Below, in pieces: positions 25,273 through 61,949 of a stretch of DNA of 64,000 nucleotides; the first letter of the stretch is position 1, and each line of letters opens with the position of its first letter. The stretch is from contig JBDRQE010000042.1 of the NCBI GenBank assembly GCA_043826415.1, forward strand, positions 97,037-161,036. Direction: 5' to 3'. The translations under genes and the position numbers were made by a program. Under the pieces are notes generated by a model. It was given only the letters and a program-made list of their open reading frames with translations, was not told the DNA's origin and did not search any database. This stretch comes from Pseudomonadota bacterium (GTDB lineage: Bacteria > Desulfobacterota > Desulfobulbia > Desulfobulbales > Desulfocapsaceae).

Positions 25273-27324
25273 TTAATACTCCCACTTCAGGCTGACCAAG
25301 GCCGACCGCCCCGGCATGGGGTAGCCCTTGACATAGGCATAGTCCTCATCAAAGAGATTGCGCAGCTCGCCGCGTACAGTGAAGTCGCCCAGAGTTGCAT
25401 CCTGCCGGAAACGATAACTGAGGGTCAGGTCGGTGACCACAAAGCTGCCCTTCTCCACCACCTCATAGCTCTCTTCCCAGTCATCCACCTGCTGCGGCCC
25501 GGTATAGGTCACATTGAAACGGCCGGAAAAGGCGCCGGAATCAGAAAAGGCAAGCCCCGTTGACAGGGTCAGATCACTCACATAGGTGAGATCAAGACCG
25601 GTTGAGTCATCCTCATACTGGTTGAGCCAGGTCATATCAACAAAGGGACGGACCTCCCAGGCCCAGCGCAGGGGAGCGCCGAGGTCATAGGAGAGCGCCG
25701 CCTCCAGACCATTGATGGTGGCACTGCCCAGATTGGTATAGGAACTGGCCCCACTGGCCACTTTATTGCTGACAATCTTATCTTCAAAATCAGTGGCAAA
25801 CCAGGTAAGCGAGCCGGAAAAACCTGCTTTGCTATAATCGGCGCCGCCCTCCCAGGTCAGGCTTTTTTCAGGATCAAGATCGGGGTTGCCAATGGTGCGG
25901 CGGCCAAAAGAAACCATATCAATGGCGAGCTGGTCGGCCGAGGGCATGACAAAACCCTGGGCCACCTGACCCCGCAGCTTGAGACCATCGTTCACCATCC
26001 AGGCCATGCCAAGCTGGGGCGTAAAATGAGAGTCATCGACCTTGGAGCCAGTCGGTTGCTGCACTTCAACAGCGTACCAGTCCTGGCGCACCCCGCCGGA
26101 AACGATGATACGGTCTTCAAGAAGGCCAAGCCTGGCCAGCAGAAAAAAGGCCGGATTCGTATAACTGGTCTGCTGGGGGCTCCAACTGTTTTCCACCGCA
26201 TAATGGAGCCAGTCCACACCGGTGGTCAGGCTCAGCGCTCCGAAGGTTCCGCTGATCTGGGCCTGCCCCCCCTGCTGATCGGTGGTGTTACGGGAATCGA
26301 TACCGTTATCCCAGCCCGTAGGATTGGATGACATTGGGTCGACCCAGACGTTTTTATCCCTGCCGAAGAAATAGCGGCCCATCCACTGATAGCGGCCGGA
26401 ACTGTTCCGGCCGCTGTAGCGGCTATCCACGGAATAATTGCTGCTATCGGTATAATTGTCGCTATCATTGACACTCAGATAGCCGGGATTACCGGCCTTA
26501 TTGACATCAAAATCGGTGACGATCACCCCCACCCGGTTATGCGGCGCAAACTCATACCCCACGTTGGCGCTGGCCCCAATCTGAGAATGGAGAGCGGTAT
26601 TGGCATAGGTGACGCCACTGGCCGTCTCATAGTCATCATGGGTGGCCGCGGAAAAGGCCCCGGCGAAATCAAACCCCTGTCCTTTGGCGGTGCCGCCGAG
26701 ACTCCCCTCTGCCTGCCCGAAGGTGCCGCCTCCAGCCTCAAGGAAAGCGGAATTGGCAAGGCCCTGGCGGGTGATAATATTGACCACCCCGCCCATGCCG
26801 CCGGAGCCATACTGGACCGCTCCCGGGCCGCGGACAATCTCGATCCGCTCCACATTTTTGGTCAGGATCTTGGCCAGATTGCCGGTCCCGGACCTGCGGC
26901 CATCAAGGAGGATCAAGACATGGCCCTGAAGATCATTGCCGTGGGTCTCGGTGCGAAAACCACGAATACCGATGGTGGTCAACGCCCCAGGATATTTCTG
27001 GACATGGCCAAGACCCTTTTCAGCCAGGAGATCGCCTACATTATCGGCCGCGGCCCGCTCCAGCTCATCCCGATCGATCACCGTCAGATTGGCGCTCACC
27101 CCGCTGCTCTTTTCCGGGACCCGAGTCGCCGTGATGGTCAGATAAGTCTTGCCGTTGACGGTCTCGATTTGCGGCAATTGCTCGACCGCCGGGGAGACAG
27201 CCGCCACATCGCCCGCCGGAATCGGCGGCGGCCCACCTTCCACGGCCAGCACTCCACTGACATCAGAGAAAAACAAACTACAAACTGCTAAACAAAAACA
27301 TTGCCGAGGATACCGCTTCTTCAT
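25273..27324 (-). CDS. btuB: TonB-dependent outer membrane receptor, vitamin B12 transporter BtuB-like
   Basis: It has a plug domain (TVIDRDELER, GIRGF), a beta-barrel and the terminal residues WEY. I chose the ATG at 27324 (MKKRYPRQC..., signal peptide), preceded by GAAGGAG. A cobalamin riboswitch lies upstream. Confidence 0.85.
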   Translation of the reverse strand: MKKRYPRQCFCLAVCSLFFSDVSGVLAVEGGPPPIPAGDVAAVSPAVEQLPQIETVNGKTYLTITATRVPEKSSGVSANLTVIDRDELERAAADNVGDLLAEKGLGHVQKYPGALTTIGIRGFRTETHGNDLQGHVLILLDGRRSGTGNLAKILTKNVERIEIVRGPGAVQYGSGGMGGVVNIITRQGLANSAFLEAGGGTFGQAEGSLGGTAKGQGFDFAGAFSAATHDDYETASGVTYANTALHSQIGASANVGYEFAPHNRVGVIVTDFDVNKAGNPGYLSVNDSDNYTDSSNYSVDSRYSGRNSSGRYQWMGRYFFGRDKNVWVDPMSSNPTGWDNGIDSRNTTDQQGGQAQISGTFGALSLTTGVDWLHYAVENSWSPQQTSYTNPAFFLLARLGLLEDRIIVSGGVRQDWYAVEVQQPTGSKVDDSHFTPQLGMAWMVNDGLKLRGQVAQGFVMPSADQLAIDMVSFGRRTIGNPDLDPEKSLTWEGGADYSKAGFSGSLTWFATDFEDKIVSNKVASGASSYTNLGSATINGLEAALSYDLGAPLRWAWEVRPFVDMTWLNQYEDDSTGLDLTYVSDLTLSTGLAFSDSGAFSGRFNVTYTGPQQVDDWEESYEVVEKGSFVVTDLTLSYRFRQDATLGDFTVRGELRNLFDEDYAYVKGYPMPGRSALVSLKWEY

Positions 27325-27371
27325 TTTTTCTCCTTCAAGAAAAGCAGTCCGGGGCAGGCCAGTAAAAAAGC

Positions 27372-27410
27372 AAAAAAATCCCCGGACCAATAAATATTGA
27401 TCCGGGGATT
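27372..27410 (-). terminator. Riboswitch expression-platform terminator
   Basis: The minus strand reads AATCCCCGGA-(14 nt)-TCCGGGGATT followed by T7. It lies between the aptamer and the btuB RBS. Confidence 0.68.
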
Positions 27411-27471
27411 GCCTTGTTTTATCCACAGATGACACAGGTCTGCCCCTTGTCCACGGAGACATCCTTCTTTA

Positions 27472-27637
27472 TTTCAGACAGGTCTTCTGACTCCCGGATC
27501 GTCCTCCCTGTTGCGCCTTCCCAACCTGAAAAATAAGGTCAGTGGCTTGAATGCAACGGTCGTCCCCGGTCACAGCGGCGGGCCCGTCCCGGATTGTCAC
27601 CGGGTTCCCTTTTAAGCTCAGTTATGAGCATCTGAAA
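27472..27637 (-). promoter_or_regulatory. Cobalamin (B12) riboswitch aptamer
   Basis: The minus strand reads AAAAGGGAACCCGGTGACAATCCGGGACGGGCCCGCCGCTGTGACCGGGGACGA...GCCACTG...GGGAAGGCG...AGTCAGAAGACCTG (B12 box). P1 pairs TTTCAGA (27637-27631) with TCTGAAA (27478-27472). Confidence 0.88.
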
Positions 27638-27649
27638 TTTTCTCGTCAA

Positions 27650-27678
27650 TGATTACTGAAAAAGCCGGCACAAGTCAA
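27650..27678 (-). promoter_or_regulatory. Candidate sigma70 promoter of the riboswitch-btuB transcript
   Basis: The minus strand has TTGACT (27678-27673), a 17-nt spacer, then TAATCA (27655-27650). It lies about 13 nt upstream of P1. Confidence 0.4.
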
Positions 27679-30850: not shown

Positions 30851-31023
30851 GAGACCTGTCCATGGAACAGCCATTCCCCGTTCAACTCAGTGATCTCTCC
30901 GACAGTGGTCGCGGCAGAGAGATCCTGTGACAGGCAGACACCGACCAACACCACCGCCTCGCCTTGTGACCGCGCGGCATGCGCCCTGCTTGCATTCACA
31001 AATCTTTGGTTAAGAGTATTCCC

Positions 31024-32397
31024 ATGTTATTCAGATACATCGTGGACCAGGAGCGCGGCCGCCTTTTGCAAAACGGCCGCAAAGGTGAGGGGCCGGTTAT
31101 CTACTGGATGGGCAGGGATCAAAGGGCTCATGACAACTGGGCCCTGCTCTTTGCTCAGGAACGGGCCTTAGCACTGCAGCGGCCCTTGATCGTCCTGTTC
31201 TGCCTGGACATGAGCAGCCCCGCTGCCACTCTCCGCCATTACGGCTTTCTCATCCGAGGTTTAGGCGAATTGCAGGCTCGACTTGCCGAGCACGCCATCC
31301 CCTTTTTCCTTCTCCAGGGTGATCCGCCCCGGACCCTGCCGGACGTTCTCAAGGAAGAGGACCCTGCCCTGCTGGTCATGGATTTTGATCCTCTGCAGAT
31401 AACACAACAATGGAAGAAGGCTGTTGTCCACCAGTGCGAGTGCCCAGTCTACGAGGTTGATGCCCACAATATCGTCCCCTGCTGGCTGGCTTCAGACAAA
31501 CGGGAATATGCCGCTTACACCCTGCGGCCAAAGATACAAAAACTGCTGCCCCGTTTTCTCACCGATTTTCCTGCACTTGCAGTCCACCCCTACAAGGCTG
31601 CGCGTCACGACAATAAACTGCTTGCTGTGCATGCATTACTGGGCTTCATCAAGGATCAATCCGTTGACGAAGTGACCTGGCTGAAACCCGGAGAGCAGGC
31701 CGCCTGGAAGACTTTTACTGATTTTCACCCGCATCTCCTGCAATCCTACCCCACAGACCGGAACAACCCCTGCCTCGATGGCCAGTCCAACCTGTCACCC
31801 TATTTTCACTTTGGCCAGCTTGCACCCCAACGGGTAGCCTGGGACATATGGCAGAGTGACACGGACCAGGAAGCCAAGGACGCCTACCTTGAAGAACTGA
31901 TCATCCGCCGGGAACTGGCGGATAATTTTTGCCATTACACGGCTGACTATGACCGCACCAGCGCCTTTCCCGACTGGGCTCGCACAAGCCTCACCGCCCA
32001 CCGGCAAGACCCGCGTCCCTTTATTGCCGACCTTCAGACCCTGGAGAGTGGCGCCACCGGAGATGTGCTCTGGAACGGCTGTCAACGGGAGTTGACAGGA
32101 CGGGGGAAGCTGCATGGCTACCTGCGCATGTACTGGGCCAAAAAGATCCTGGAATGGTCCGCCTCACCGGAAGAGGCCATGTTCAATGCCATTTATCTCA
32201 ACGACAGATACTCTCTCGATGGACGTGATGCCAACGGATATGCCGGAATCGCCTGGAGTATTGGCGGCGTTCATGACCGGGCCTGGCAGGAACGAGCTAT
32301 CTTCGGGAAGATACGATATATGAACCAGAACGGCTGCAAAAGAAAATTCAGCATCTCTGAATATTTACAACGGGTCGACTCGCTCACATCGAAATGA
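31024..32397 (+). CDS. phr: Class II CPD deoxyribodipyrimidine photolyase
   Basis: GPVIYWMGRDQRAHDNWALLFAQ...VDAHNIVPCW...EYAAYTLRPKI...GYLRMYWAKKILEW match class II photolyases nearly residue for residue. The start at 31024 is favoured over 30979 by N-terminal length, and neither has a clear SD. Confidence 0.9.
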   Translation: MLFRYIVDQERGRLLQNGRKGEGPVIYWMGRDQRAHDNWALLFAQERALALQRPLIVLFCLDMSSPAATLRHYGFLIRGLGELQARLAEHAIPFFLLQGDPPRTLPDVLKEEDPALLVMDFDPLQITQQWKKAVVHQCECPVYEVDAHNIVPCWLASDKREYAAYTLRPKIQKLLPRFLTDFPALAVHPYKAARHDNKLLAVHALLGFIKDQSVDEVTWLKPGEQAAWKTFTDFHPHLLQSYPTDRNNPCLDGQSNLSPYFHFGQLAPQRVAWDIWQSDTDQEAKDAYLEELIIRRELADNFCHYTADYDRTSAFPDWARTSLTAHRQDPRPFIADLQTLESGATGDVLWNGCQRELTGRGKLHGYLRMYWAKKILEWSASPEEAMFNAIYLNDRYSLDGRDANGYAGIAWSIGGVHDRAWQERAIFGKIRYMNQNGCKRKFSISEYLQRVDSLTSK

Positions 32398-33357
32398 TCA
32401 GGACACTCTGCGGATCAATCGTTGAATATCTGGAACAAGCTTGAAGACAGGAGACCAGAGCTGACAACCGGCCTCCTGCAAAAGAAGATCATCCACGGGA
32501 ACACCCTGGCCGCCGACAACAAAGAGAAAAGGATGCCTTCTGACCAAGGCCGCGAGCGCAGAACGATATTTCCGGTATCTTGCTGAGTCACTTACTGATA
32601 ACCAGACACTCGACGGCTGCAGTTGATCTACGGTCTGTTCAAGATCGGCCAGGGGTAATGCCGCCCCGAGATAAACGACATCACAGCCCTCACGGGTCAG
32701 GGCATAGGCGACGACAAGCAGCCCTATCCTGTGTTCATCACCGGGAAAGCAACTGCAGACAACCGTTGACTGCGCCCCGTTAGTTCCGGGTCTTGCCCTG
32801 CGGGCCTGATCAATGCAGTTGTGCAGGTAATGTTCTATCATGCAGCTGACAAGGTGTTCACCGGCCACACCGACCCTGCCGGCAAGATACGATTCACCGA
32901 TCACGACCATGGCCGGAACGAAGACATCGTACACCACCTGATCCGGACTGAGTTCCAGCAGGGCACGATCGAGGGCAGCGCGGAGCTTCAGGGCATCAAC
33001 ATCTTGAGCGGCAGCAAGCAGGGGGGCGATATAGCCGGCCGGCACGGTTGCCTCCGGCTCTCTGAGGGATGCAGTCGCTCCATCTTTGTCTCCAGGCCCG
33101 CCCTTGCTCCTGACCTGCCGCAAAAGCTGCTCCCGTCCAAGTAAGGCCAGTTCTCCAATGCGATGACCACCGGCAACAAGCTGCGCAACAGAGCAGACCA
33201 GAAGCACATCCTCATGACTGTACAGACGATGCCCCCCAGCTCCTCGCTGTGGAGCCCACAGGCCATACCTTTTTTCCCAGACCCGTAAAAGGGTCGGCGA
33301 GACTCCGCTCTTTCTGGCCAGTGTCCCGATTTTGTACCATATTTTATCCTCGGTCAT
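32398..33357 (-). CDS. MerR-family regulator with B12-binding domain (CarH/LitR-type candidate photoreceptor)
   Basis: The MerR HTH reads YKIGTLARKSGVSPTLLRVWEKRYG. The helical-bundle motif is ESYLAGRVGVAGEH (Y-x9-E-H). The Rossmann B12 motif is PGDEHRIGLL (DxHxxG). The ATG at 33357 follows GGAGG. Confidence 0.78.
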   Translation of the reverse strand: MTEDKIWYKIGTLARKSGVSPTLLRVWEKRYGLWAPQRGAGGHRLYSHEDVLLVCSVAQLVAGGHRIGELALLGREQLLRQVRSKGGPGDKDGATASLREPEATVPAGYIAPLLAAAQDVDALKLRAALDRALLELSPDQVVYDVFVPAMVVIGESYLAGRVGVAGEHLVSCMIEHYLHNCIDQARRARPGTNGAQSTVVCSCFPGDEHRIGLLVVAYALTREGCDVVYLGAALPLADLEQTVDQLQPSSVWLSVSDSARYRKYRSALAALVRRHPFLFVVGGQGVPVDDLLLQEAGCQLWSPVFKLVPDIQRLIRRVS

Positions 33358-33892
33358 GCCCTTGCTTCCTCCCCCAGACCATATAGACCGGGTCACTGGC
33401 TGGAATTTCCCAATGCGGATCATCATCCGGTCTGGGCAAACCTCGTCGACTCAAAGTGGCCAGATCCTGAAACCCTGCAGTCCTGTGAAACATCTCCAAA
33501 ACCATACCAAGCCGCTCGAACTCATGCAATTGACTCCAGACCTTGATCGCCTTTGGCGGAAACCAGCGATTTGAAAAGGCCATAGCCAGGACACCACCTG
33601 GCTGCAGGACCCGATAAGTCTTATATCCTGGTGTTGGAGGAGAAAATTGTTCCGGCCTGACAGCTACCAACTTATCCCGTCGATATGGAGGAAAAGAGCC
33701 CGGGGCAACAGGCACCCTCACCCTTTGCCCCTCTGCCTTCCCCTGAAGCGCCACAGCAAGCCCGGGGACAAAACAGTCTCGCCACATATTGACAGAATCA
33801 GCCCACAGACTGTCACTGTGCCGGACCCCGTCAACAGACCATTCCAATGTAAACTCAATTATTGCCCTGCTGTTTTTTTCAATTACCTTCAT
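33344..33892 (-). CDS. Chimeric ORF: SlyD/FKBP-like N-terminal segment joined to the C-terminal part of a class I SAM methyltransferase (possible gene remnant)
   Basis: MKVIEKNSRAIIEFTLEW..FVPGLAVALQGKAEGQRVRVPVAP..RDKLVAVRPEQF follows the SlyD pattern. YRVLQPGGVLAMAFSNRWFP... is the post-motif-II part of a methyltransferase, and no GxGxG motif I is present. The start is uncertain (33892 or 33934). Confidence 0.45.
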   Translation of the reverse strand: MKVIEKNSRAIIEFTLEWSVDGVRHSDSLWADSVNMWRDCFVPGLAVALQGKAEGQRVRVPVAPGSFPPYRRDKLVAVRPEQFSPPTPGYKTYRVLQPGGVLAMAFSNRWFPPKAIKVWSQLHEFERLGMVLEMFHRTAGFQDLATLSRRGLPRPDDDPHWEIPASDPVYMVWGRKQGHDRG

Positions 33893-35058: not shown

Positions 35059-35254
35059 AATCCGGGATCCTCGGCTGGCAGTCACATCCCCATAAAGAAT
35101 AGAGCTGTTGTCTTATCAATTAGGATTGATTCTCACCATATTTTTTGTTAAGTAATTTCCTCGACAATCATCTATCTATTTTTACCAAGATATGTCTCCG
35201 GCTCTGCCGGGATACATGCAACTGGAAATCAACCACGCTGAAAGGAGTTTTCTC

Positions 35255-35623
35255 ATGTCCAGAACCGATGAACTGAACCAGGCCTTATCAAATTTACAGG
35301 CCGCCTCCGCCGACATTGAGGCCTGCGCGGTGGTCTCCGAAGATGGCCTGACCATCGCCAGCTCTCTTCCCCAGAATATGGAGGAGGAACGCATTGCCGC
35401 CATGTGCGCGGTCATGCTCTCCATGGGGGGCAGAACCGCCAAAGAGCTGCAACGCGGAGAACTCGATCAACTCTTTGTCAAAGGGAAGAACGGGTATGTC
35501 ATCATCAGCCATGCCGGGGAACACGCCTCACTGATAGCCATCACCCGTAAGGAAGCAAAACTCGGCCTGATCTTCCTCGACATGTCGCGGACTGCCGCTG
35601 AAATCGCCAACATCCTGGCATAG
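35255..35623 (+). CDS. Roadblock/LC7 (MglB-like) domain protein
   Basis: IEACAVVSEDGLTIASS...RIAAMCAVMLSMGGRTAKEL..GELDQLFVKGKNGYVIISHAG fits Roadblock/LC7. AAAGGAG lies 7 nt before the ATG at 35255. Confidence 0.75.
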   Translation: MSRTDELNQALSNLQAASADIEACAVVSEDGLTIASSLPQNMEEERIAAMCAVMLSMGGRTAKELQRGELDQLFVKGKNGYVIISHAGEHASLIAITRKEAKLGLIFLDMSRTAAEIANILA

Positions 35624-35671
35624 CTAACTCCCCTGACTTTCCCGTCCTTACAGCATAGCAAGGAATTAAAC

Positions 35672-36424
35672 ATGTTAGAACTTTACTCAAACAACGAGCA
35701 CAAAAGTATCTTCTGCAACGATCTCTCGGTGGGCAGTATGGTTGAGGCCAACCAGCATATCATCATTCATAACGGAGAGGGAATTCTCCTTGATCCAGGT
35801 GGCCATAAAATCTATACCCGCCTGTTTGCCCAACTTTCTTCCCATCTCACCATCTCCGGCCTGAAGTACATTTTCTTCTCCCATCAGGACCCTGATATTA
35901 TTGCCGCCACCAACGGCTGGCTTATGGTAACGGATGCCAACGCCCTTCTCTCGGCTCTGTGGATGCGTTTTATCCCCCATTTTGGCGTTGACGAACTGGT
36001 CGTAGGCCGGATCAAACCCATTCCCGATGAAGGTATGGTGGTTAAGGTCGGTGGAGTAGGGCTGAAGCTGATTCCAGCCCACTTCCTTCACTCCCCTGGC
36101 AATTTCCAGCTCTACGATCCGATCTCCAAGATACTCTACACCGGTGATTTAGGAGCGTCCCTTGGCACCGATGACCCTTTTGTGAAAGATTTTGACGCCC
36201 ATATCCCGGCCATGGAAGGCTTTCACCGCCGCTATCTCCCATCATCCAAGCCATTAAAAATGTGGGCAAAGACAGTACGGCAATTAGATATCGAGATCAT
36301 TGCCCCCCAGCACGGAGCAATGATGGCCGGCAGGGAAAATGTCGATCGTTTTATCTCCTGGATCGAACACCTTGACGGTGTGGGCTATGAGTTAATGGGA
36401 GATTCATTCCCCATTCCTGAATAA
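35672..36424 (+). CDS. MBL-fold, flavodiiron-core-like protein (oxygen-binding di-iron protein, ODP-like)
   Basis: ILLDPGG, FFSHQDPDIIAA (the HxDxD position of the di-iron site), HFLHSPGNF, YTGDLGAS and APQHG follow the order of FprA N-terminal/ODP metal ligands. No flavodoxin domain is present. Confidence 0.68.
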   Translation: MLELYSNNEHKSIFCNDLSVGSMVEANQHIIIHNGEGILLDPGGHKIYTRLFAQLSSHLTISGLKYIFFSHQDPDIIAATNGWLMVTDANALLSALWMRFIPHFGVDELVVGRIKPIPDEGMVVKVGGVGLKLIPAHFLHSPGNFQLYDPISKILYTGDLGASLGTDDPFVKDFDAHIPAMEGFHRRYLPSSKPLKMWAKTVRQLDIEIIAPQHGAMMAGRENVDRFISWIEHLDGVGYELMGDSFPIPE

Positions 36425-36442
36425 CAGCGAATAATAGTGACG

Positions 36443-36452
36443 CCCCCCCCCC
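36443..36452 (+). repeat. C10 homopolymeric tract at the 5' end of the kinase gene
   Basis: There are ten consecutive C residues, counted directly. They end 2 nt before the ATG at 36455 and lie inside the alternative GTG-started frame (36437, ...TPPPH...). Confidence 0.95.
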
Positions 36453-36454
36453 AC

Positions 36455-39400
36455 ATGGACAGCCTGGGTGAATCTAAAAAACTCTTCCTTGATAGTATCA
36501 CCCTGCTCTCCAAGATCCTTGATCTGGACGAAGGAGCAAAACTGGATCATGGCCAAAGGGTAGGATTGCTGGCTCATGCCCTGTCAGCCCCACTCAACAT
36601 CACAAGCCCAGGACTATTGTATATAGCTGGTTTATTGCATGATATCGGCGGAATGGGCCTGGCAGATCATGTGCTGCACCATGCCTTGCGAAATTTTCAG
36701 GACATGGAGGCACGCAAACATGCCGAGCAGGGCGCCCTGATTCTTGCCACCTTTCATCCCTTTGCCTCGCTGTCTGCATGGGTGCGAGATCATCATGAAC
36801 GCTATGACGGTGCAGGGTTTCCGGCCGGCAAGTCAAAACAGGAGATCACTCCGGAGGCAGGAATACTCCATCTTGCCGATCTGCTGGACATCTTTGTCCG
36901 TTCCAGCACAAACCTGAGCAAAAAAAAAGTTCTGCAGTTCATTGAACAGCAATCGGGCCGGACCGTTTCTCCGGCTATTGCCGCAGCCGGTAAACGATTG
37001 TTCTCTGCAAATCAGGACAGCATGGAACTGCTGACAAGTCCCTTTCCCCTGTCACGCCCCAGCAACTCGCCGCTGCCGGATCTTCCATGTTTCTCCGATT
37101 GCAGCAACCACGATCTTCTCTGCCGGCTCCTCTGGTTTATCGCCCATGTGGCTGACAGTAAACACCCTGGACACCAGAACCATTCTATTCATGTTGCCTA
37201 TTACAGCCATCACATTGCCTGCGCCCTCACAAATCCGATCCTCCCCCCGCTGGAGACACTCTGGGCAGCCCTCCTTCATAACATTGGAATGGCAGCGGTT
37301 CCCAGAGAAGACCTGCTCATTGATTATGACATCCGGCCTGAGATTTCTCCCTTTTACCGACGGCACCCGGACATATCGGCACAACTGATTGCCGACATAT
37401 CCGGCCTCGCCCATCTGGCCCCGGTAGTGGCTGCCCAGCATGAACATTTTGATGGCACAGGTTTTCCCCATGGGCTCCAAGGCACACAGATTCCGCAAGC
37501 CGCCCAGATTATAGCTCTGGCCAATACCTATCACTGGCTGACCGGCAGACAAGGACATATGCATGCCCTTAAGGTTATCGAGCAAGGCAAAGGAAATCTT
37601 TTTGATCCACTCCTTGCCGAAACGGCGCTCAAAATCTTCTCCATTCATGGCCCGCGCGATATCAACTGGCTCGACACCCTGCCTAATGTGTATGCCTTTT
37701 TCCAGACACAGCAGAAAAAAAACATCGCTCCGGAACAGGATCAAACTCCGGCCACCATGAACATCAGGAACGAAGAGGCACAGCTTCCTCGACAATGGCA
37801 TTTCAGCAGACTTACCGATACCTTGCGGATTCTTTCCGGTGGCGCCTGTTTTTCAGCCCTGTGCGGCATCAATGACTGTTATCACCTGAATCAAGCCCTG
37901 AGCGATCAAGGTTTTCTGGAGTTGACCAGGCAACTCTCCACCCTCAAACCCGAATCAACCCTGACTCTAACCCTGCCCAGCAGAAAGAATACCGTTCTGG
38001 AACTGATTTTTACCAGACAGTTAAGCGGCTATGATCTTCTGTCACGAGGAGTCAACACAGCACCCATATTTCAGCAGACAAACTCTGTCTTTTATCAAAA
38101 TTTTATCACCAATTCAGAAGCGGAACTTCTTCTTGACATAGATGGCCGGATCAAAGAGGCCAATACCGCTTTTATGGAATGTTTCCAGATTCCCAGAGCA
38201 ATGCTGCTGCAAACGACTATTATCAAACTGTTTGAGCCATTCCTCACCCCGGCAAAATTCGTGGGCCTTCAACGCTTTTTCTCTACACCGGACATGGAGA
38301 TCTGGACAGACGAATTTCCCTTCATTAACGGTCCTGAAAAACACCTGATCATCCAGGCCACGCTCTATCGTATTGGCGGAGGCGAACAGAATAAATCAAC
38401 ATATTTATGTAGATTTATTAATATTTCTGAAAGAAAAAAATTTGAGCAAGAACTCATCCGACGCGACGATGAACTGCGGGCCAGTGTCCATAATACCGCG
38501 GGCATGACCGGGGAAAGTTTCTTTAAAACGCTGCTCTATCAGTTCATCATGCTAACCAAGGCCCGAACAGGAATGATTTCAGAACTGACGGACAATGGCA
38601 AATCCCTTCTCCCCCTGGCCTTCTGGGAAAATAACAAATTCTGGCCGCCACCGGACCAATTTCAACTGCAGACCTCACCTTGCCTACTGGTAGTGAAACG
38701 GGGGGAAACCTATTTTCCTCGCCGTCTGCATGAATTTTTCCCCACCAATTTTCTTCTGCAGGACAGAAATCTCAGCAGCTACTGGGGTCTTCCACTGCGA
38801 CAACAGGATGGGACTCTCAGCGGGATACTCTCGATCTATGATGACAAACCCATTCTCCATTCCAGGAACATGCAGACCATCGCCCGGATTTTTCAAACCA
38901 GAATAACCAGTGAACTGGCTCGACTGCAAACCGAACAAATCCTGCTGGAAAAAGACCGACAACTGGAAATCCAGAACAACGCCCTGATCCGCATGAATCA
39001 ATTCAAAAATGATATGATCGCCATTACCTCACACGACCTGAAAGCACCGCTCTCGGCCATCATCGGTTACGCGTCTCTGTTGACCGAACATTCAGCCCGA
39101 CTGGACAAAGACAAAACTCTGCACTATATCCATAGGATTCATGACGAAGGACAGAAACAACTCATATTCATCAACAAGATGCTCGATCTTTATCGAATTG
39201 AGTCCGGCTCCATAGAGTTGACGCTGGAGCCCCATCGCCTGGACATGCTGCTCGGAAGTGCCATGAGTTCTTTAAACGAACTTGCCCGCACACGGGCAAT
39301 AACCTTCAGTTTTACCATTACCGGCAAGGCGACCTCATTACCGATTGACCATGTGCGTTTCGGTCAGGTCTTTTCCAACCTGCTTTCCAATGCCATCAAA

Positions 39401-39727
39401 TTTTCTCCCGAACAAGGCCAAATTACGGTATGCTATGACCAGAATCCGCACAATGTGACTGTTCATATCCGCGACCAGGGCCCCGGCATCAACGAAAAGG
39501 AGATAGACCATATCTTTGATCGGTATTATATGGGCAGAACTGATTTTAAAATTCGCCCGGAGGGTTCCGGTTTGGGACTGTATATTGTTAAAAATATAGT
39601 CCAACTCCATGGTGGTACAGTTTCCGCCCGCAACAACAGTACCGGAGGCAGTTGCTTTACCGTAGAGCTGCCTGTCACCAATCAACAGGATACAAATCAT
39701 GAAACAGCAGAATATTCTTATCATTGA
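36455..39727 (+). CDS. Multidomain sensor: HD-GYP, degenerate HD-GYP, PAS, GAF, HisKA and HATPase_c histidine kinase
   Basis: Domain 1 has LLHDIGGMG and HHERYDGAGFPAG. Domain 2 has LLHNIGMAAV and QHEHFDGTGFPHG. The HisKA motif is ITSHDLKAPLSAI and the ATPase has GSGLGLYIVKNIVQLHGG. The start is ambiguous (ATG 36455 or GTG 36437). Confidence 0.85.
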   Translation: MDSLGESKKLFLDSITLLSKILDLDEGAKLDHGQRVGLLAHALSAPLNITSPGLLYIAGLLHDIGGMGLADHVLHHALRNFQDMEARKHAEQGALILATFHPFASLSAWVRDHHERYDGAGFPAGKSKQEITPEAGILHLADLLDIFVRSSTNLSKKKVLQFIEQQSGRTVSPAIAAAGKRLFSANQDSMELLTSPFPLSRPSNSPLPDLPCFSDCSNHDLLCRLLWFIAHVADSKHPGHQNHSIHVAYYSHHIACALTNPILPPLETLWAALLHNIGMAAVPREDLLIDYDIRPEISPFYRRHPDISAQLIADISGLAHLAPVVAAQHEHFDGTGFPHGLQGTQIPQAAQIIALANTYHWLTGRQGHMHALKVIEQGKGNLFDPLLAETALKIFSIHGPRDINWLDTLPNVYAFFQTQQKKNIAPEQDQTPATMNIRNEEAQLPRQWHFSRLTDTLRILSGGACFSALCGINDCYHLNQALSDQGFLELTRQLSTLKPESTLTLTLPSRKNTVLELIFTRQLSGYDLLSRGVNTAPIFQQTNSVFYQNFITNSEAELLLDIDGRIKEANTAFMECFQIPRAMLLQTTIIKLFEPFLTPAKFVGLQRFFSTPDMEIWTDEFPFINGPEKHLIIQATLYRIGGGEQNKSTYLCRFINISERKKFEQELIRRDDELRASVHNTAGMTGESFFKTLLYQFIMLTKARTGMISELTDNGKSLLPLAFWENNKFWPPPDQFQLQTSPCLLVVKRGETYFPRRLHEFFPTNFLLQDRNLSSYWGLPLRQQDGTLSGILSIYDDKPILHSRNMQTIARIFQTRITSELARLQTEQILLEKDRQLEIQNNALIRMNQFKNDMIAITSHDLKAPLSAIIGYASLLTEHSARLDKDKTLHYIHRIHDEGQKQLIFINKMLDLYRIESGSIELTLEPHRLDMLLGSAMSSLNELARTRAITFSFTITGKATSLPIDHVRFGQVFSNLLSNAIKFSPEQGQITVCYDQNPHNVTVHIRDQGPGINEKEIDHIFDRYYMGRTDFKIRPEGSGLGLYIVKNIVQLHGGTVSARNNSTGGSCFTVELPVTNQQDTNHETAEYSYH

Positions 39728-40661
39728 TGATGACCCAGCCCAGCAGGAAATTCTAGGAGAACACCTGCTGCTGAGCGGATTTCAGCCTCTCCATGCCCTG
39801 GGCTGTAACAGCGCCTTTGATGTTTTACAAACTACTCCCGTTGACCTGATCCTCCTTGACATCAACATGCCTCAGGTTGATGGTTTTCAAACCATCGAAC
39901 GTCTGCGCCGGAATGAAAAAACCCAAAGCACCCCTGTCCTGTTCCTTACAAGTCTTGATCGTCAATACTTGAAGATCAAAGGACTGGAGCTTGGCGCAGA
40001 TGATTATATCACAAAACCCTACAACAGCGCCGAGCTGATAGCCCGCATCAAGGCGATCCTGAGAAGATCCGCGCCTGTTCCTCTCCCGCCGGGCGTCATT
40101 CAGGGTGATATTACCGCCATCGGATTATCCGAACTGTTGCAGAATATCGGGCAAAGTGCGCGTTCAGCCCGTATTAGCTTTCCGGACATGAACGGTACAA
40201 TTATTACAGCCAACGGCAATATCCTGCTGATTCGTCAAGGCACGTTTTCAGGCCTGGAAGCACTGACCCGCCTCCTGCTTCTGGAAAAAGGCCAATTCTC
40301 TGTGCAGTATGATCACCTTCCGAATCAGCTGCCGGATCCGGAAATCACTATTTTTGCAGCACTGCTGAACACCGCCGCCCAAGTTGACCATCTCAAAATG
40401 GCGGCGGAAAGCACTGGTCAACAAAATCCGGTGCTCACTCTTAGCCCACAGGGAAGCGGGATTCTGGAGATTGATCTCTGGAGATCTTATTTTCCTCTGC
40501 CCCTGTTTTCCCTCATCAGCATAATGGATGACGCCATTGAAGATAATATGAACAAGGTCCTGAAAGCGATCATTGAAGACAGACTTCACTGTCTGCCGGC
40601 GGATGCGGAAGCTCTTTCAACAGAGAGTAACGACTCTTCACCCGGCCAGTCCACAATTTAA
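39699..40661 (+). CDS. Response regulator receiver with C-terminal DUF4388 (PATAN-like) domain
   Basis: The REC domain has ILIIDDD...DLILLDINMPQVDG...KP. The DUF4388 pattern is GDITAIGLSELLQNIGQSARSARISF...GNILLIRQGTFSGLEALTRLLLLEKGQFSV. The gene overlaps the kinase by 29 nt. Confidence 0.8.
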   Translation: MKQQNILIIDDDPAQQEILGEHLLLSGFQPLHALGCNSAFDVLQTTPVDLILLDINMPQVDGFQTIERLRRNEKTQSTPVLFLTSLDRQYLKIKGLELGADDYITKPYNSAELIARIKAILRRSAPVPLPPGVIQGDITAIGLSELLQNIGQSARSARISFPDMNGTIITANGNILLIRQGTFSGLEALTRLLLLEKGQFSVQYDHLPNQLPDPEITIFAALLNTAAQVDHLKMAAESTGQQNPVLTLSPQGSGILEIDLWRSYFPLPLFSLISIMDDAIEDNMNKVLKAIIEDRLHCLPADAEALSTESNDSSPGQSTI

Positions 40662-40676
40662 CCCCCAAAACAAAAA

Positions 40677-41450
40677 ATGAGCAAAATCATAGCAATAACC
40701 AGCCAGAGAGGCGGGGTCGGCAAGACAAGCACCTGCTTGAATCTGGGAGTAAGCCTGGCCAAGACAGGTAAAAAAGTTCTACTGATAGATACAGACCCGC
40801 AGGGAGCGCTGGCCATCGCCTGCAATCTGACCAGAATCACAAAAAAAGGGCTGACGCAGTTGCTCCGTGGCGAGGTCACGGAAGATGACATCGTCATTCA
40901 AGCAGGTAAACGTTCCCTCTTTTTCGTCGGTGCAGGGGTGGAAACCCCGCAAGACGTTTTTTTTCTGAAACAGGAATGCAGCAACGGCCATCTGGGAATG
41001 GCCATCAGAGGACTGGCAACCGGATATGATTACATCCTGCTTGATACCCGCACTGGACTGGACAATGCGCTGCTGCAATTACTGGTGCACGCAGATTCCA
41101 TTCTTCTGCCATGCCCCTGCCAAGTCAGCGCCATAAAGACCCTGCCGCTGCTGCTTAAAGGGATCCAAAAAATTCAGAGTGAACAGAACCCAAGGCTTAC
41201 CATTGAAGGTATTCTCCTCACCCTGACCGAAGACAAAGATCCCTGCGCCCTCGAGATCAGACAGGAGATAGAGAGAGCCTTCCCGGCCGGAATCTTCTTC
41301 ACAGCCACCATCCCTTTCCTCCGCTCATTTGAACAAGCCGCCCTGCATGCAGTGCCTGTTGCCCTGTTGAAAAATGCACCTGCCGCCAGTCAGGCCTTCG
41401 ATGCCCTGGCTGAAGAACTTGATGCCCGAACAGATTCCAGAGAGGAATAA
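40677..41450 (+). CDS. ParA/MinD-family P-loop ATPase with atypical deviant Walker A (RGGVGKTS)
   Basis: KIIAITSQRGGVGKTSTCLNLGVSLA...VLLIDTDPQG...YILLDT is Soj/ParA-like. The signature Lys of KGGxGK[ST] is replaced by Arg. Confidence 0.82.
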   Translation: MSKIIAITSQRGGVGKTSTCLNLGVSLAKTGKKVLLIDTDPQGALAIACNLTRITKKGLTQLLRGEVTEDDIVIQAGKRSLFFVGAGVETPQDVFFLKQECSNGHLGMAIRGLATGYDYILLDTRTGLDNALLQLLVHADSILLPCPCQVSAIKTLPLLLKGIQKIQSEQNPRLTIEGILLTLTEDKDPCALEIRQEIERAFPAGIFFTATIPFLRSFEQAALHAVPVALLKNAPAASQAFDALAEELDARTDSREE

Positions 41451-41456
41451 ACTCCG

Positions 41457-41978
41457 ATGAATAGATTAACAAATTCCAGCGAACTCGAAGAAGCATCTTC
41501 CCTTTTCTGCGCCCTCCTTGATCCTGTCATCTCTGCTGCCGATTCTGCAGACACACTCTCCACCGAGGCTCCTGACGCATCCGAGCCGTCTACAGATCTG
41601 CCGCTCCCCTTCCGCGGAGACCAACTGGAAAAGATTCTTTACGGTATGTGCAAACGAGGAGGATTTTCCAGTGCCGTCGTGGCAGACCGGCAAGGACTGG
41701 CGCTGGGGGTCTATAACAGCCCTGTTGATATGGAAGTTCTGGCTGCCTTCACTACGGTCCTTGGAGAAACCATCAATAAGGCCGGTCGTTTTCTCGATCA
41801 ACACGAAGCCAACAACATCTCTCTTGACATCAACTATGCCGACAAAGCAGTGGTCCGACAATTTTTCCTTGCCGAAAGCCCTTGTTATATTATGGTTATT
41901 TGTCCACAATATGTTGATGAACGCAGCGAGATCGAGCTTTCTCTTGATCAGATCATCACCCTTTTACAGAAGAGATAA
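41457..41978 (+). CDS. Roadblock/LC7-like protein with acidic N-terminal extension
   Basis: GFSSAVVADRQGLALGVYNSP.DMEVLAAFTTVLGETINKAGRFL...AVVRQFFLAESPCYIMVIC follows the Roadblock pattern. The gene starts 6 nt after the ParA-like stop. Confidence 0.55.
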   Translation: MNRLTNSSELEEASSLFCALLDPVISAADSADTLSTEAPDASEPSTDLPLPFRGDQLEKILYGMCKRGGFSSAVVADRQGLALGVYNSPVDMEVLAAFTTVLGETINKAGRFLDQHEANNISLDINYADKAVVRQFFLAESPCYIMVICPQYVDERSEIELSLDQIITLLQKR

Positions 41979-43314: not shown

Positions 43315-43444
43315 AAGGCTCTGAATTTCAGTTCTCGTGATTCCACATGGACATCTGTTCCCCAGCTTGTTATTGTATAGAAAATTGAGTTCTTCCTTGA
43401 AACTGCGCTCTCTTTTCATCACTTCACATTTTCTCCGGCTGCCC

Positions 43445-46159
43445 ATGACTGCTATTGCTCGAGCCATCTGCCTCTTTCTATTCCTTCTCTTCCCCTCATA
43501 TCTGCCGGCCGCCATCCCTCAAACCATATTCATCGGCGTCCTTGCCAAAAGCGGAGAGGATATTGCGGTGCAAAAATGGACGGCAACGGCTGACTATCTC
43601 TCCGCCACTCTCCCTGAGTACCATTTTACTATTGTCCCCCTGGGATTTAGAGAAATTCATGAGACAGTAGAACAGGGCAAGGTCGATTTCGTCCTGACCA
43701 ACCCGGCCTATTATGTAGAGCTGGAAAAGCTCTACGGAGTCAGCCGGCTTGCCACCCTGATTAACCAGAATCTCCCTGGACAACAGACCACCACCTTTGG
43801 CGGTGTGATCTTCACCAAGGCTGACCGTCTGGATATCAACACCTTCACGGATCTTAAAGGAAAGTCCTTCATGGCAACGGACTCGCTTTCATTCGGCGGC
43901 TGGATTGTCGCCTGGCGGGAGTTTTTTCTGCAGGACATCGAACCGCTCGCCGATTTTTCTTCTCTGCGCTACGCCGGCACCCATGAAGGTGTTGTCCAGG
44001 CCGTCCTGAATGGAACCGTTGATGCCGGAACAGTGCGCACCGACACCCTTGAACGCATGGCGGAAAACGGAACCATACATCTGGAACAGATAAAGGTTTT
44101 AAACAAACAGCGGAACGACGATTTTCCCTTTCTCCTCAGCACCGCCCTGTACCCGGAATGGCCCATGGCGGCAATCAAATCAACACCGGACAGGCTTTCC
44201 CGCCTCGTTGCCGGCGCCCTGATGACCATGGAAAGCAATGCCCCCGCAGCCTTGGCCAGTCATTCGGCAGGATGGACCATTCCCCTCAATTATCAACCTG
44301 TGCATGACTGTCTTTTTGATTTGAAGATCGGTCCCTACAAGGACTATGGAACATTTTCCCTTACCGATGTCCTCTCCCGCTACTGGCGGCAATTCACTCT
44401 TCTGGGCCTTACTGTTCTTCTGATCCTGATCACCGCCTGGTACGTCCTTCTCCTGAATCGAATCCTGCAAAAGAAAAAACTGGAGGTGGAGAGACTGAAT
44501 GTCACCCTTGAAAGCAAGGTAGCGCAACGGACAGAAAAGATTAATAGCCTTCTCGATCGTCAGATCTATCTCAAAGGCATTCTGCAAACCGTAGCCGATA
44601 TCAACAAATTACTGATCACCTCCCCCAACCTGATAGTCCTGCTCAAAAAGTCCTGTGAACTCTTTGTCCAGCATGGGCACTATGGATTCTCATGGATTGG
44701 CCTGCTTGATGAAGAGAAAATTCATACCGTATACAGCTCCGATGATTTCGAAAAATATCTGGCTCCTCCTCCGTATGCGGTCAACGACCCGGAGCTCCCC
44801 TTTTATCAAAGCCCGACGGCCAGATGTCTCCACGAAGACAAGACCGTCATCAGCGACCGTAACCATGACCAGGACCTTACCCCCTGGCGGGATCAGGCTG
44901 AAATAAAGGGATTTCAGGCAGCTATCGCGCTGCCCCTGCGGGCTCGAGAGTCAGCCAAGCCTCTGGGCACACTGACAATCTATACCTGGTTGCGAGAAGG
45001 ATTTGAGCAGGAAGAAGTTGCCATGCTGGAAGAACTTGCCGGGGATCTCGGTTTTGCCATCAGCTCCTTTCGCCACCGGGAGGAAGTCGCCAGATTGACA
45101 TTTGAACGAACGGTCAATTATCAAGAGACCATCTTCACGTTTGTGAACATGATTGAGCAACGGGATACTTACACCGCCGGCCATACGGAGCGCGTGGCCG
45201 GCTATTGTCAACAAATAGCCAAGGCAATGGGCATTGCCGAGCAGGAGATAGAAAAGCTCTACAAAGCGGCAATCCTCCACGATATCGGCAAGATAGCCAC
45301 ACCGGACTCCGTTCTTCTCAAACCGGGAAAACTCAACAGCCTGGACTATGAGCTGATCAAGCTCCATGCCACCGCCGGCTACGAAATGCTTTCCAATATC
45401 GACATGTATAAAGATCTGGCCGAAATCATTCACCATCATCATGAACGTCATGACGGCAAGGGCTATCCCGACGGACTACAGGGCGATGAGATCCCCTTTC
45501 TCTCCCGCATTCTCACCGTGGCCGATGCCTTCGACGCCATGACCACCAACCGTATCTACAAGCCACGAAAACAGATCCAGGAGGCCTTAACTGAACTGGC
45601 GTCTCTCAGCGGTCTCCAATTTAACCCTGATATTGTCGCCGTGGCCATTCAGGCACTCAAGGAAACAACACTCCCAGTGGCCGTCACCCAGAACCCAAGC
45701 ACGGATATTGAAAAAAAACGATTTTCTTATTTCTTCAACGACAGGCTGACCGGACTGTTCAACGAAGACTACCTGAAAATTTTCCTGCAGAACAACCTGA
45801 ATATCCACGAATACACCTGCCTGCATATTCTCCATCTCAGCAACGTTATCGAATACAATAAACGTGAGGGCTGGGAGCAGGGAAATCGTATAATCCAGGA
45901 ATTTGCGGTCGAGTTGCAGGCCCACTATCCTCACGCCCTGCTCTTCAGGGCCTACGGCAACGATTTCGCCATCCTCACCCGCAAACATTTTGAGCTGGCA
46001 GGAGATACCTTTGACTCTTTCACCAGCATAGCCGACTCCGAGATCACCGTTGAGCCCCAACATATTGATTTAGAGAAAGATCAGACCTACACCCTTGATA
46101 AACTAGAAAAAATGGTAATTTCATGCCCAATCCCAGAAAAGGGGCAAGGTACTGAATAA
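43445..46159 (+). CDS. Periplasmic PhnD/SsuA-like binding domain, TM, GAF, HD-GYP and degenerate GGDEF signalling protein
   Basis: A signal/TM start at ATG 43445 is followed by FIGVLAKSGEDIAVQKW...VDFVLTNPAYYV (PBP-like). The HD-GYP domain has HTERVAGY, LHDIGKIATP and HHHERHDGKGYPDGL. The C-terminal GGDEF-like fold has YGNDF in place of GGDEF. Confidence 0.8.
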   Translation: MTAIARAICLFLFLLFPSYLPAAIPQTIFIGVLAKSGEDIAVQKWTATADYLSATLPEYHFTIVPLGFREIHETVEQGKVDFVLTNPAYYVELEKLYGVSRLATLINQNLPGQQTTTFGGVIFTKADRLDINTFTDLKGKSFMATDSLSFGGWIVAWREFFLQDIEPLADFSSLRYAGTHEGVVQAVLNGTVDAGTVRTDTLERMAENGTIHLEQIKVLNKQRNDDFPFLLSTALYPEWPMAAIKSTPDRLSRLVAGALMTMESNAPAALASHSAGWTIPLNYQPVHDCLFDLKIGPYKDYGTFSLTDVLSRYWRQFTLLGLTVLLILITAWYVLLLNRILQKKKLEVERLNVTLESKVAQRTEKINSLLDRQIYLKGILQTVADINKLLITSPNLIVLLKKSCELFVQHGHYGFSWIGLLDEEKIHTVYSSDDFEKYLAPPPYAVNDPELPFYQSPTARCLHEDKTVISDRNHDQDLTPWRDQAEIKGFQAAIALPLRARESAKPLGTLTIYTWLREGFEQEEVAMLEELAGDLGFAISSFRHREEVARLTFERTVNYQETIFTFVNMIEQRDTYTAGHTERVAGYCQQIAKAMGIAEQEIEKLYKAAILHDIGKIATPDSVLLKPGKLNSLDYELIKLHATAGYEMLSNIDMYKDLAEIIHHHHERHDGKGYPDGLQGDEIPFLSRILTVADAFDAMTTNRIYKPRKQIQEALTELASLSGLQFNPDIVAVAIQALKETTLPVAVTQNPSTDIEKKRFSYFFNDRLTGLFNEDYLKIFLQNNLNIHEYTCLHILHLSNVIEYNKREGWEQGNRIIQEFAVELQAHYPHALLFRAYGNDFAILTRKHFELAGDTFDSFTSIADSEITVEPQHIDLEKDQTYTLDKLEKMVISCPIPEKGQGTE

Positions 46160-52225: not shown

Positions 52226-52849
52226 ATGCAATGCCCTGGACAGGACAACCGATACTGGAGCGGCGAGGCCGTTTATGAGATCCCCTGCCCCCACTGCGGC
52301 AATATGCTGGAATTTTTCAAGGATGACAGCCAACGTACCTGCAAGCAATGCGGACACCGGGTGCTGAACCCCAGGATCGATTTTGGCTGCGCCTCCTACT
52401 GCCCTTATGCCGAACAGTGCATGGGCGCGCTGCCGTCCGATCTGAAGAGTGGACTGGCTGACCTGTTCAAGGATCGGCTGGCAGTTGCAGTGCGGAAACG
52501 TCTGCTGGATAATGAGCAAAAATATCTTCTGGCCGGCAGAAGGGCTGAATTCGGCGAGAAACTCTGCCAGGAGGAGGGAGGAAACATGGCCGCCATTGTC
52601 GCCGCCGCCCTGCTCAGCGAGATCGATCAGCCCCTGGCCCTGCTGACGGAGCTTGCGGCGGAAGAAAACTTTATCAAGGAGGTGAATGCGCTTCTCTCCC
52701 GGCAGCCTGCCACGAATGATGAAGAGGCCAAGTCAGCCGCGATTTTCCATGATGCCTGCCGCCTGGGCGACATGAGCATGCAGTCAGACATATCTGCCAC
52801 ATGCCTGACTGCAGCGGGCATACGAGAAGCCAAAAAACTTACCCCTTAG
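52226..52849 (+). CDS. Cys-rich zinc-ribbon protein with degenerate HD-like C-terminal domain
   Basis: The N-terminus is CPGQ...CPHCG...CKQCGH...GCASYCPYAEQC. The C-terminal helical region has IVAAALLSEIDQ where HD-domain proteins have AALLHDIG. Confidence 0.5.
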   Translation: MQCPGQDNRYWSGEAVYEIPCPHCGNMLEFFKDDSQRTCKQCGHRVLNPRIDFGCASYCPYAEQCMGALPSDLKSGLADLFKDRLAVAVRKRLLDNEQKYLLAGRRAEFGEKLCQEEGGNMAAIVAAALLSEIDQPLALLTELAAEENFIKEVNALLSRQPATNDEEAKSAAIFHDACRLGDMSMQSDISATCLTAAGIREAKKLTP

Positions 52850-54870: not shown

Positions 54871-55264
54871 TGAGTTTACACCAGAAGACGAAGCTGCAAC
54901 ATGGACTGTTTTCACACAGTACACTGTTCGTGCTGGAAGCTCAAAGAGTAATTCTTACGGGATGCGGATAAGAGATATGCAGAGGACTTGGAAAATACAA
55001 ATTTACCATTGTCGAACATATAGGTCAAAAGTCATTCCGGTAACGCTGGTATTTCTCGGGATGAAGGGACTGTGTAATATGGCTTCAGTGATGAGATGAA
55101 GCAAAGTGATGAACAACTTTCTACAGTGATCTGCGATACAATCCAACTCTAGTTCCCGTGCAGTATGAGAACCAGGGTTGGATTGTTTCACTCCAGAGAC
55201 AGAGTGTGTGAATATGTGGAAAACCTTACAAAAAGATTTTCCACTGGCAGCATTAATCTTTTAT

Positions 55265-61912: not shown

Positions 61913-61949
61913 AGTTTCACTCTCTTTTATTCTCAAAGATGGATGAGCA

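Follow-up and report, generated by a model that had tools for sequence, protein, structure and literature searches.

The stretch of DNA analysed here (the window, 64,000 nucleotides of contig JBDRQE010000042.1 from a bacterium of the Desulfocapsaceae) carries, between positions 35255 and 41978, a module of six genes, p1 to p6. They encode a Roadblock/LC7 protein (RoblA), a free-standing di-iron protein of the metallo-beta-lactamase (MBL) fold belonging to the ODP family, a soluble histidine kinase with HD-GYP-type domains, a response regulator in which a receiver domain (REC) is followed by a PATAN/DUF4388 domain, a ParA/MinD-type ATPase and a second, divergent Roadblock-fold protein (RoblB). 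We conclude that the module is a real, conserved and uncharacterised system, a variant of the NTPase-switch or positioning modules, whose mechanism we infer. On balance, the reading that we favour, with somewhat better than even confidence, is that of a cytoplasmic signalling cassette in which a phosphorelay linked to O2/Fe(II) and to cyclic di-GMP (c-di-GMP) controls the ParA-type ATPase by means of Roadblock adaptors. The further proposal that the Roadblock proteins are dedicated activating or exchange-type regulators of a ParA/MinD-class ATPase, and represent a new class of bacterial spatial switch, is put forward tentatively. A preliminary description of this DNA, made from the letters and the open reading frames (ORFs), had not recognised the combination as a described system. 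In agreement with it, full-text literature searches found no published account of such a module, nor any description of a Roadblock-fold protein as the partner of a ParA-type ATPase.

In order to compare the module with its relatives, one genome per species was scanned, which yielded 48 loci, and the window proteins were mapped onto these by tblastn. The core composed of RoblA, ODP, the REC/PATAN protein, the ParA-type ATPase and RoblB was kept across these loci, which belong to several phyla. By record title, they come from Desulfobacterota, Acidobacteriota/Aminicenantes, a Nitrospiraceae metagenome-assembled genome (MAG), Chthoniobacterales, Myxococcota and 'Clostridia' MAGs. The nearest relatives were Desulfobulbales-like MAGs, and an additional relative of p6 was present in a protein record of a Thermodesulfovibrionales MAG. 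The window has an exact match in a Logan metagenome contig, and an NCBI MAG protein labelled 'Pseudomonadota bacterium' is identical to p6. Components were counted in the 38 loci that offered 5 kb or more of upstream sequence: RoblA was found in 37 of them, REC in 35, ODP in 33 (with two copies in 6), a detectable PATAN domain in 32, a kinase in 25 and tandem HD-GYP domains in 9. The gene for the p5-type ATPase lay directly upstream of the p6-type gene in 47 loci out of 47. The conservation of gene order, on which the preliminary description had made its proposal depend, was thus borne out.

All-against-all clustering of the flanking ORFs revealed no family common to more than seven loci, and the flanks were unconserved even in the closest relative of the window (locus L002). 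Because the core is kept while the flanks share no widespread family, the module is, as judged from these comparisons, a self-contained cassette lying in unrelated contexts. The opposite idea, in which ordinary two-component genes stand beside unrelated small genes by chance, could invoke promoter and terminator scans, which were uninformative. It is already contradicted by the comparative data, namely a core kept across phyla between variable flanks and the existence of fusions between components, and we regard it as scarcely credible.

These natural fusions are the strongest functional evidence available, and they are of two kinds. ParA-RoblB fusions, about 400 aa in length with the ParA part N-terminal and the p6-type domain C-terminal, make up at least seven clusters at 50% identity and belong to a sister lineage; in L047 the fusion is one continuous ORF. 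Fusions of the (REC-)PATAN protein with Robl_LC7 were found in three loci of this lineage, L050, L052 and L055, and their Roadblock part matches p1, not p6. Because such fusions exist in nature, it can be argued that each Roadblock protein binds its own fusion partner, RoblB the ATPase and RoblA the PATAN domain. The earlier proposal that an ATPase of ParA type stands in for MglA and has the Roadblock proteins as partners is strengthened by the strict adjacency of the two genes and by both fusion types, which fall short of proving it.

A PilZ or cNMP-PilZ protein is also encoded at two of the fused-variant loci (L050 and L052). In addition, a conserved Cys-rich protein of 205 aa is encoded between the ParA-RoblB and PATAN-RoblA fusion genes in L050 (8846-9463, -), L052 (2358-2975, -) and L055 (9215-9832, -). 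It had no Pfam match and contains the motifs CPFAP, SPFC.VHQ, LGC and HMCCY, and ODP may be replaced by it as a redox or metal sensor.

Beyond the core, the cassette occurs in different architectures. In the first, to which the window and Desulfatibacillum alkenivorans belong among others, the kinase carries fused tandem HD-GYP domains; this fusion was observed in 10 loci, the window included. In the second, seen for instance in Desulfuromusa, a PAS-kinase is accompanied by an additional REC protein encoded downstream; the third has no internal kinase; in the fourth, which is of Acidobacteriota type, a hybrid PAS-HK-REC-Hpt kinase (HK, histidine kinase) lies downstream; and the fifth has no ODP and includes a small PAS protein. 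The ODP-less loci have either this small PAS protein or the Cys-rich 205-aa protein in the place of ODP. Single genomes add further arrangements: in Geomonas sp. Red32, the tandem HD domains have a gene of their own, which lies between those of ODP and the kinase, and roblA is flanked by two ODP genes in Desulfonema ishimotonii.

Two other observations were made on these loci. In many of them, a REC protein of about 365 aa, absent from the window, is encoded right after RoblB (for instance L023 10588-11691 and L056 15683-16777), and its C-terminal part gave weak DUF4388 and TPR matches. Furthermore, the loci from 'uncultured Clostridia' MAGs (L033-L037, L041 and L042) have the same module architecture as those from Aminicenantes/Acidobacteriota MAGs and share the flanking families c8, c16 and c53-c56 with them; the taxonomic labels of these 'Clostridia' MAGs may be unreliable.

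A small GTPase was looked for in the 64-kb window and within about 10 kb on each side of the 48 related loci. With one MglA sequence as the query, the best E value that tblastn reached in the window and the loci was no lower than 0.46, and no ORF carrying both GTPase motifs, G1 and G4, came out of motif scans. The sole GTPase-like classical GxxxxGK[ST] P-loop of the window (G1 motif GNPNAGKT) belongs to ORF 18101-20305 (+), which we take to be a FeoB-like ferrous-iron transporter. In these searches, the earlier statement that the module encodes no small GTPase holds for the window and for the covered surroundings of its relatives.

These searches bear on the reading in which RoblA and/or RoblB are GTPase-activating proteins or cofactors of an MglA encoded elsewhere, the ParA-like gene being a mere conserved neighbour. 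Such a role would suit the strong Robl_LC7 match of p1 (E 5.5e-18 in Pfam) and the JGI annotation 'predicted regulator of Ras-like GTPase activity' that several relatives carry. It would also suit the published count, according to which 328 of 749 prokaryotic MglB homologs (~44%) lack both a GTPase and a known role and are classed as orphans (PMC4316618). On the other side, the fusions bind both Roadblock proteins to partners within the module, no MglA was found within ~10 kb at any of the 48 loci, and the adjacency to the ParA-type gene is strict, so that we hold this reading to be very improbable.

The p5 protein was matched by AAA_31 (E 1.6e-32, 113 bits) and CbiA (63.8 bits), both above their cut-offs, as well as by ParA-type models of Pfam. 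The solved structures closest to it are ParA 8ray (E 5e-26) and Soj 1wcv (E 1e-24). In the window, its Walker A motif (40701-40721) reads RGGVGKT, the signature lysine being replaced by arginine. The canonical KGGVGKT is present in 31 of 41 p5 orthologs. Elsewhere in the family, the signature lysine is replaced by Arg (L040, as in the window), Leu (L010 and L013) or Gln (L012), and the P-loop lysine by Gln, giving KGGVGQT (L017, L020 and L022). As far as these motifs indicate, some members of the family may bind nucleotides as scaffolds and not be active ATPases.

Neither ParB nor MinE is encoded in the module, where the partner gene downstream of p5 codes for the Roadblock-fold protein p6. 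Attempts to prove from its sequence that p6 is a Roadblock protein failed: Pfam gave no match at E<=0.01, with Robl_LC7 appearing only at E 0.067, a profile search of the PDB gave no sequence match, and the alignment of the RoblB and RoblA family profiles by hhalign was weak (E 0.0036, probability 9%). An AlphaFold2 (AF2) model was then considered, for which the input was a 28-sequence alignment. The pLDDT of this model exceeded 90 over residues 53-171 (~41613-41969), a domain with the topology alpha-beta-beta-alpha-beta-beta-beta-alpha. Its best Foldseek matches were the MglB/Roadblock structures 6hjm (E 4e-9, target TM 0.72), 3t1s, 9jue and 3kye, and the matches include the MglB proteins of Myxococcus xanthus and Thermus thermophilus. 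By its predicted structure, p6 is a divergent Roadblock-fold protein, this assignment applying to the fold level only. The second Roadblock protein that had been said to bracket the module is supported in that sense, and finds no support in the sequence. The p6 family is small but real, with 216 representative clusters when 1.84 billion representatives were searched at E<=1e-3. On its N-terminal side, the modelled domain of p6 is connected by a disordered linker to a conserved helix (aa 8-21), in which a basic residue is conserved.

The main rival to our reading starts from this pair of genes. According to it, the ParA-like protein and RoblB are an ordinary orphan ParA/adaptor pair that positions or partitions a complex of ODP, RoblA, the PATAN protein and the kinase, RoblB being a ParB-like adaptor and the ATPase not being the signalling output. 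RoblB does hold the position of a partner gene, right after ParA, in every one of the 47 loci; its N-terminal helix with the basic residue and the disordered linker resemble the N-terminal peptides that activate ParA proteins; p5 is nearest to chromosomal ParA/Soj structures; and the fusions show tethering, not regulation. However, neither a receptor array nor a microcompartment nor any other large cargo is part of the module, which consists of small soluble proteins throughout. Moreover, the phospho-switch gene directly upstream of ParA and the PATAN-RoblA fusion suggest a regulatory input rather than a passive cargo, and the degenerate Walker A motif of some members fits poorly with a ratchet driven by ATP turnover. 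We consider cargo positioning rather unlikely.

On the sensor side of the cassette, RoblA is the most conserved component, with a median identity of 66% across loci, as compared with 64% for ODP, 38% for ParA and 30% for PATAN. The RoblA gene adjoins the ODP gene in nearly all loci, and the two stay paired even where they are inverted (L024 and L049). The p2 protein was assigned to ODP (PF19583) with E 4.6e-70 and 235.9 bits against a cut-off of 27.2. It aligns with the crystallised ODPs of Treponema denticola and Thermotoga maritima (6qnm/6r9n and 6qrq/6qwo) with E ~1e-62 and ~50% identity, and in this alignment the metal-site motifs HQDPD, H(F/L)xHSxG, GDxGA and APQHGA are identical between p2 and the solved ODPs. 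The T. denticola ODP is an O2 sensor that works via a partner receptor on CheA (PMC7666581), and by analogy p2 would itself sense O2.

In the p3 kinase, Pfam detected two HD/HD_5 stretches, HisKA and HATPase_c, and between these parts a middle region of ~430 aa showed only faint PAS similarity (E~0.09). The first HD-GYP-type domain retains all metal ligands (H..HD..H..HHE..DG.GFP..AD, with GFP replacing GYP) and, because these ligands are kept, hydrolysis or sensing of c-di-GMP may be its role. In the window, the second domain is degenerate (HN, QH, AN), and most orthologs have an intact version of it. The attribution of c-di-GMP phosphodiesterase-type domains to the kinase is thus correct in that both HD-GYP-type stretches are present, and overstated as regards the second one. 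The residues of a phosphorelay are intact, since p3 has the H-box SHDLKAPL and p4 the receiver aspartate: the phospho-acceptor D54 of p4, together with D10 and K106, is invariant or nearly so in A2. The DUF4388 match of p4 lies just below its cut-off; this marginal assignment is rescued by the orthologs, 33 out of 34 of which match DUF4388 (best E 9.4e-16), and the p4 orthologs of Geomonas and Desulfonema carry a precomputed PatA_N annotation.

The PATAN domain had been presented as a known partner of MglA-type GTPases. An association does exist, and it is one of gene neighbourhood only (PMC4316618), so that the wording was too strong. In Synechocystis, PATAN serves as the output and binds PilC as well as PilB1, the latter at its N-terminal domain (bioRxiv 10.1101/2021.06.11.447907), which lends itself to another interpretation of the module. 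The six genes would then chiefly regulate pilus motors, bringing pili of type IV or MSHA type under O2/c-di-GMP control, and p4 would bind a PilB-like ATPase or PilC by its PATAN domain. In the window, the target would be the MSHA/type IV pilus-like cluster at 55265-63448 (-), in which an N_methyl pilin, T2SSF, a T2SSE ATPase and a secretin are encoded, and the ATPase of which has a c-di-GMP-binding-type MshEN/GspE_N domain. The HD-GYP domains within the module and the PilZ proteins beside the fused variants would also fit. Against this, pilus genes were located near the module in only 1 of the 48 loci (L046), and in the window the cluster, which is encoded on the other strand, is separated from the module by 13 kb and by unrelated genes. 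Furthermore, the invariant ParA-RoblB pair would be left unexplained. We find this interpretation clearly unlikely. The preliminary description had suggested that the module might act on the cluster downstream; the cluster is real, and the link is not supported by the related loci, even the flanks of the closest relative being unconserved. Adjoining the cluster, an NMT1-PAS-GGDEF protein is encoded at 52846-54924.

In the signalling cassette that we favour, ODP, whose counterpart in T. denticola is known as an O2/Fe(II) sensor, would act with RoblA on the input side, p3 would phosphorylate the receiver of p4, and the PATAN domain of p4 would bind RoblA. RoblB would bind the p5 ATPase, these two proteins forming the output pair. 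Roadblock domains are obligate dimers, and for this reason contacts between RoblA and RoblB are proposed. Through them, the sensor state and p4 phosphorylation could be coupled to the cycle of the ATPase, whether this concerns nucleotide, dimer or localisation. The ATPase itself would serve as a spatial switch or positioning device, the role that MglA has in MglA/MglB modules. The c-di-GMP signal would be integrated via the HD-GYP domains or, in the fused variants, via PilZ, and the cassette would have moved as a unit between anaerobe-rich lineages. We infer the physical contacts, the phosphotransfer, the effect of the Roadblock proteins on ATPase activity and the cellular target.

Several points weigh against this scheme. 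The heterodimerisation of RoblB with RoblA is pure conjecture, the two family profiles being barely similar. The kinase is absent or differently placed in about a third of the loci, so that the core can perhaps do without a phosphorelay of its own. Since part of the ParA family has a non-canonical Walker A motif, ATP turnover is perhaps not essential. In a neighbour-joining tree, the fused ATPases form a basal grade, and a single ancient event, or a small number of them, may account for the fusions instead of many independent ones. The AF2 model of a natural ParA-RoblB fusion (P0169) consists of two confident domains joined by a disordered linker (265-286), with a pTM of 0.67, and no docking geometry could be defined from it. 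Finally, MglA may be encoded elsewhere in these genomes, as the search reached about 10 kb on each side.

The module can be compared with several known systems. Like MglA/MglB(/MglC/RomR) of Myxococcus xanthus and Thermus, it combines Roadblock-fold proteins with a P-loop NTPase, has two different Roadblock paralogs (cf. MglB and MglC) and includes a receiver protein in the circuit (cf. RomR), and PATAN genes are known as gene neighbours of MglA/MglB (PMC4316618). It differs by having no Ras-like GTPase, its NTPase being a ParA/MinD-type (SIMIBI-class) ATPase, by a RoblB that is too divergent for Pfam, and by its built-in ODP sensor and kinase. The actinobacterial conservon (CvnA, kinase-like; CvnB, Roadblock; CvnC, DUF742; CvnD, GTPase) is likewise an operon whose Roadblock protein, P-loop NTPase and protein of histidine-kinase type make up one signalling unit. 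Unlike the conservon, the module has neither a DUF742 protein nor a small GTPase (CvnC and CvnD were not found in it or in its relatives); its kinase is soluble, variable and provided with a cognate REC-PATAN protein, it encodes two Roadblock proteins, and it occurs in other taxa.

With the orphan ParA/MinD systems (ParC/ParP, PpfA/TlpT, McdA/McdB, PomXYZ and TadZ/CpaE), the module shares an ATPase of the deviant Walker A family encoded beside a specific partner gene. As in the che operons that contain ParC and PpfA, the ATPase gene is placed among signalling genes, and TadZ/CpaE too couples a receiver-like domain to a ParA-like ATPase. In contrast to these systems, the partner in the module has the Roadblock fold, there is no evident cargo, and in the window the signature lysine is an arginine. 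The pair of ODP and methyl-accepting chemotaxis protein (MCP) of T. denticola is another example of a free-standing ODP encoded beside a signalling protein that it presumably controls, but there the partner belongs to a chemoreceptor/CheA array, whereas here it is a Roadblock protein with a two-component kinase and a ParA-like ATPase. Similarly, the cyanobacterial PatA-type regulators (PixG, PixE and PatA) contain PATAN and a receiver, and PATAN is their output. The order is reversed in the module, where REC precedes PATAN, the context is not chemotaxis-like, and the fusions suggest a Roadblock partner instead of PilB or PilC.

Roadblock/longin proteins, from MglB to Ragulator, are universal platform regulators of small GTPases. 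The module gives a testable answer for one large group of orphan Roadblock proteins, in that their NTPase partner may be a ParA/MinD ATPase, and there is a substantial chance that it represents a new class of ParA regulation. If so, the partnership between Roadblock proteins and NTPases would reach from the TRAFAC-class small GTPases to the SIMIBI-class ATPases, a new kind of partner would be added to the repertoire of ParA-like ATPases, and in anaerobes there would be a direct link from the sensing of intracellular O2/Fe(II) and c-di-GMP to the positioning of proteins. ODP, of which spirochete chemotaxis is the only context known so far, would gain a second and far broader one for signalling in O2-avoiding sulfate- and metal-reducing anaerobes. 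The hypothesis is directly testable, since culturable carriers exist: Geomonas sp. Red32, Desulfatibacillum alkenivorans DSM 16219, Desulfonema ishimotonii, Desulfuromusa kysingii and Desulforhopalus sp. IMCC35007.

The layout of the module was verified by an ORF check, which returned the six genes, all in the same direction, with the coordinates and gaps that had been claimed (Table 1). The gaps amount to 48 nt (p1-p2), 30 nt (p2-p3), 15 nt (p4-p5) and 6 nt (p5-p6), and p3 and p4 overlap by 29 nt; with GTG 36437 instead of ATG 36455 as the start of p3, the p2-p3 gap shrinks to 12 nt. The start of p1 is backed by the ribosome-binding site GAAAGGAG at 35240-35247 and by the uniform length of its homologs, the top 120 database relatives being nearly all of 122 aa (range 119-152). 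No consensus sigma-70 site was found in the upstream gap, where a promoter is only presumed, and scans for internal promoters and terminators gave no signal above chance, the results being at or below shuffled expectation. Because of this, the operon announced in the preliminary description, which is likely, is deduced from spacing alone. The domain assignments made there for the six proteins hold in profile searches, that of p6 as a Roadblock protein being valid at the fold level. No transmembrane segment was predicted in any of the six proteins, and none of them reached the cut-off of a specific NCBIfam equivalog model. A role in anti-phage defence was discarded, PADLOC having given generic domain-level matches only.

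Table 1. Genes of the module, their domains and the region upstream, with positions in the window.
Feature	Position	Strand	Basis or remark
Upstream intergenic region, putative promoter and 5' untranslated region	35059..35254	+	196 nt, AT-rich, after an unrelated epimerase gene
p1 RoblA, Roadblock/LC7, 122 aa	35255..35623	+	Pfam Robl_LC7
p2 ODP, free-standing di-iron MBL-fold protein, 250 aa	35672..36424	+	Pfam ODP PF19583
p3 soluble sensor histidine kinase, 1096 aa (1090 aa from ATG 36455)	36437 or 36455..39727	+	Pfam and motifs
p3 HD-GYP-type domain 1	~36545-36889	+	Pfam HD_5/HD, motifs
p3 degenerate HD-GYP-type domain 2	~37148-37609	+	Pfam HD_5/HD, motifs
p3 HisKA	~39005-39208	+	Pfam
p3 HATPase_c	~39347-39679	+	Pfam
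p4 response regulator, REC then PATAN/DUF4388 then variable tail	39699..40661	+	Pfam and orthologs
p4 REC, residues 6-118	~39714-40052	+	Response_reg E 1.5e-25
p4 PATAN/DUF4388, residues 135-231	~40101-40391	+	DUF4388 24.7 bits vs cut-off 25
p5 ParA/MinD-type deviant Walker A ATPase, 257 aa	40677..41450	+	Pfam AAA_31, CbiA
p6 RoblB, divergent Roadblock/MglB-fold protein, 173 aa	41457..41978	+	AF2 and Foldseek

Some features of the surroundings were also recorded. A protein with Phosphonate-bd, GAF and HD-GYP domains (and a weak GGDEF match) is encoded at 43337-46159 (+), downstream of the module at a distance of 1.4 kb. In the ODP-less loci, the module is followed by Phosphonate-bd proteins that stand alone, as detected by Pfam in L046 and by clustering with L046 in L043 and L030; this association with the module could be recurring or due to chance. 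Further upstream, a cobalamin riboswitch was detected at 27460-27650 (-) with 117.6 bits, ahead of an ORF of 729 aa (25273-27462). Just upstream of the module, at 30979-33426, a photolyase gene (+) abuts a gene (-) for a CarH-like regulator with MerR and B12-binding domains, and these two genes look like a light-response pair.

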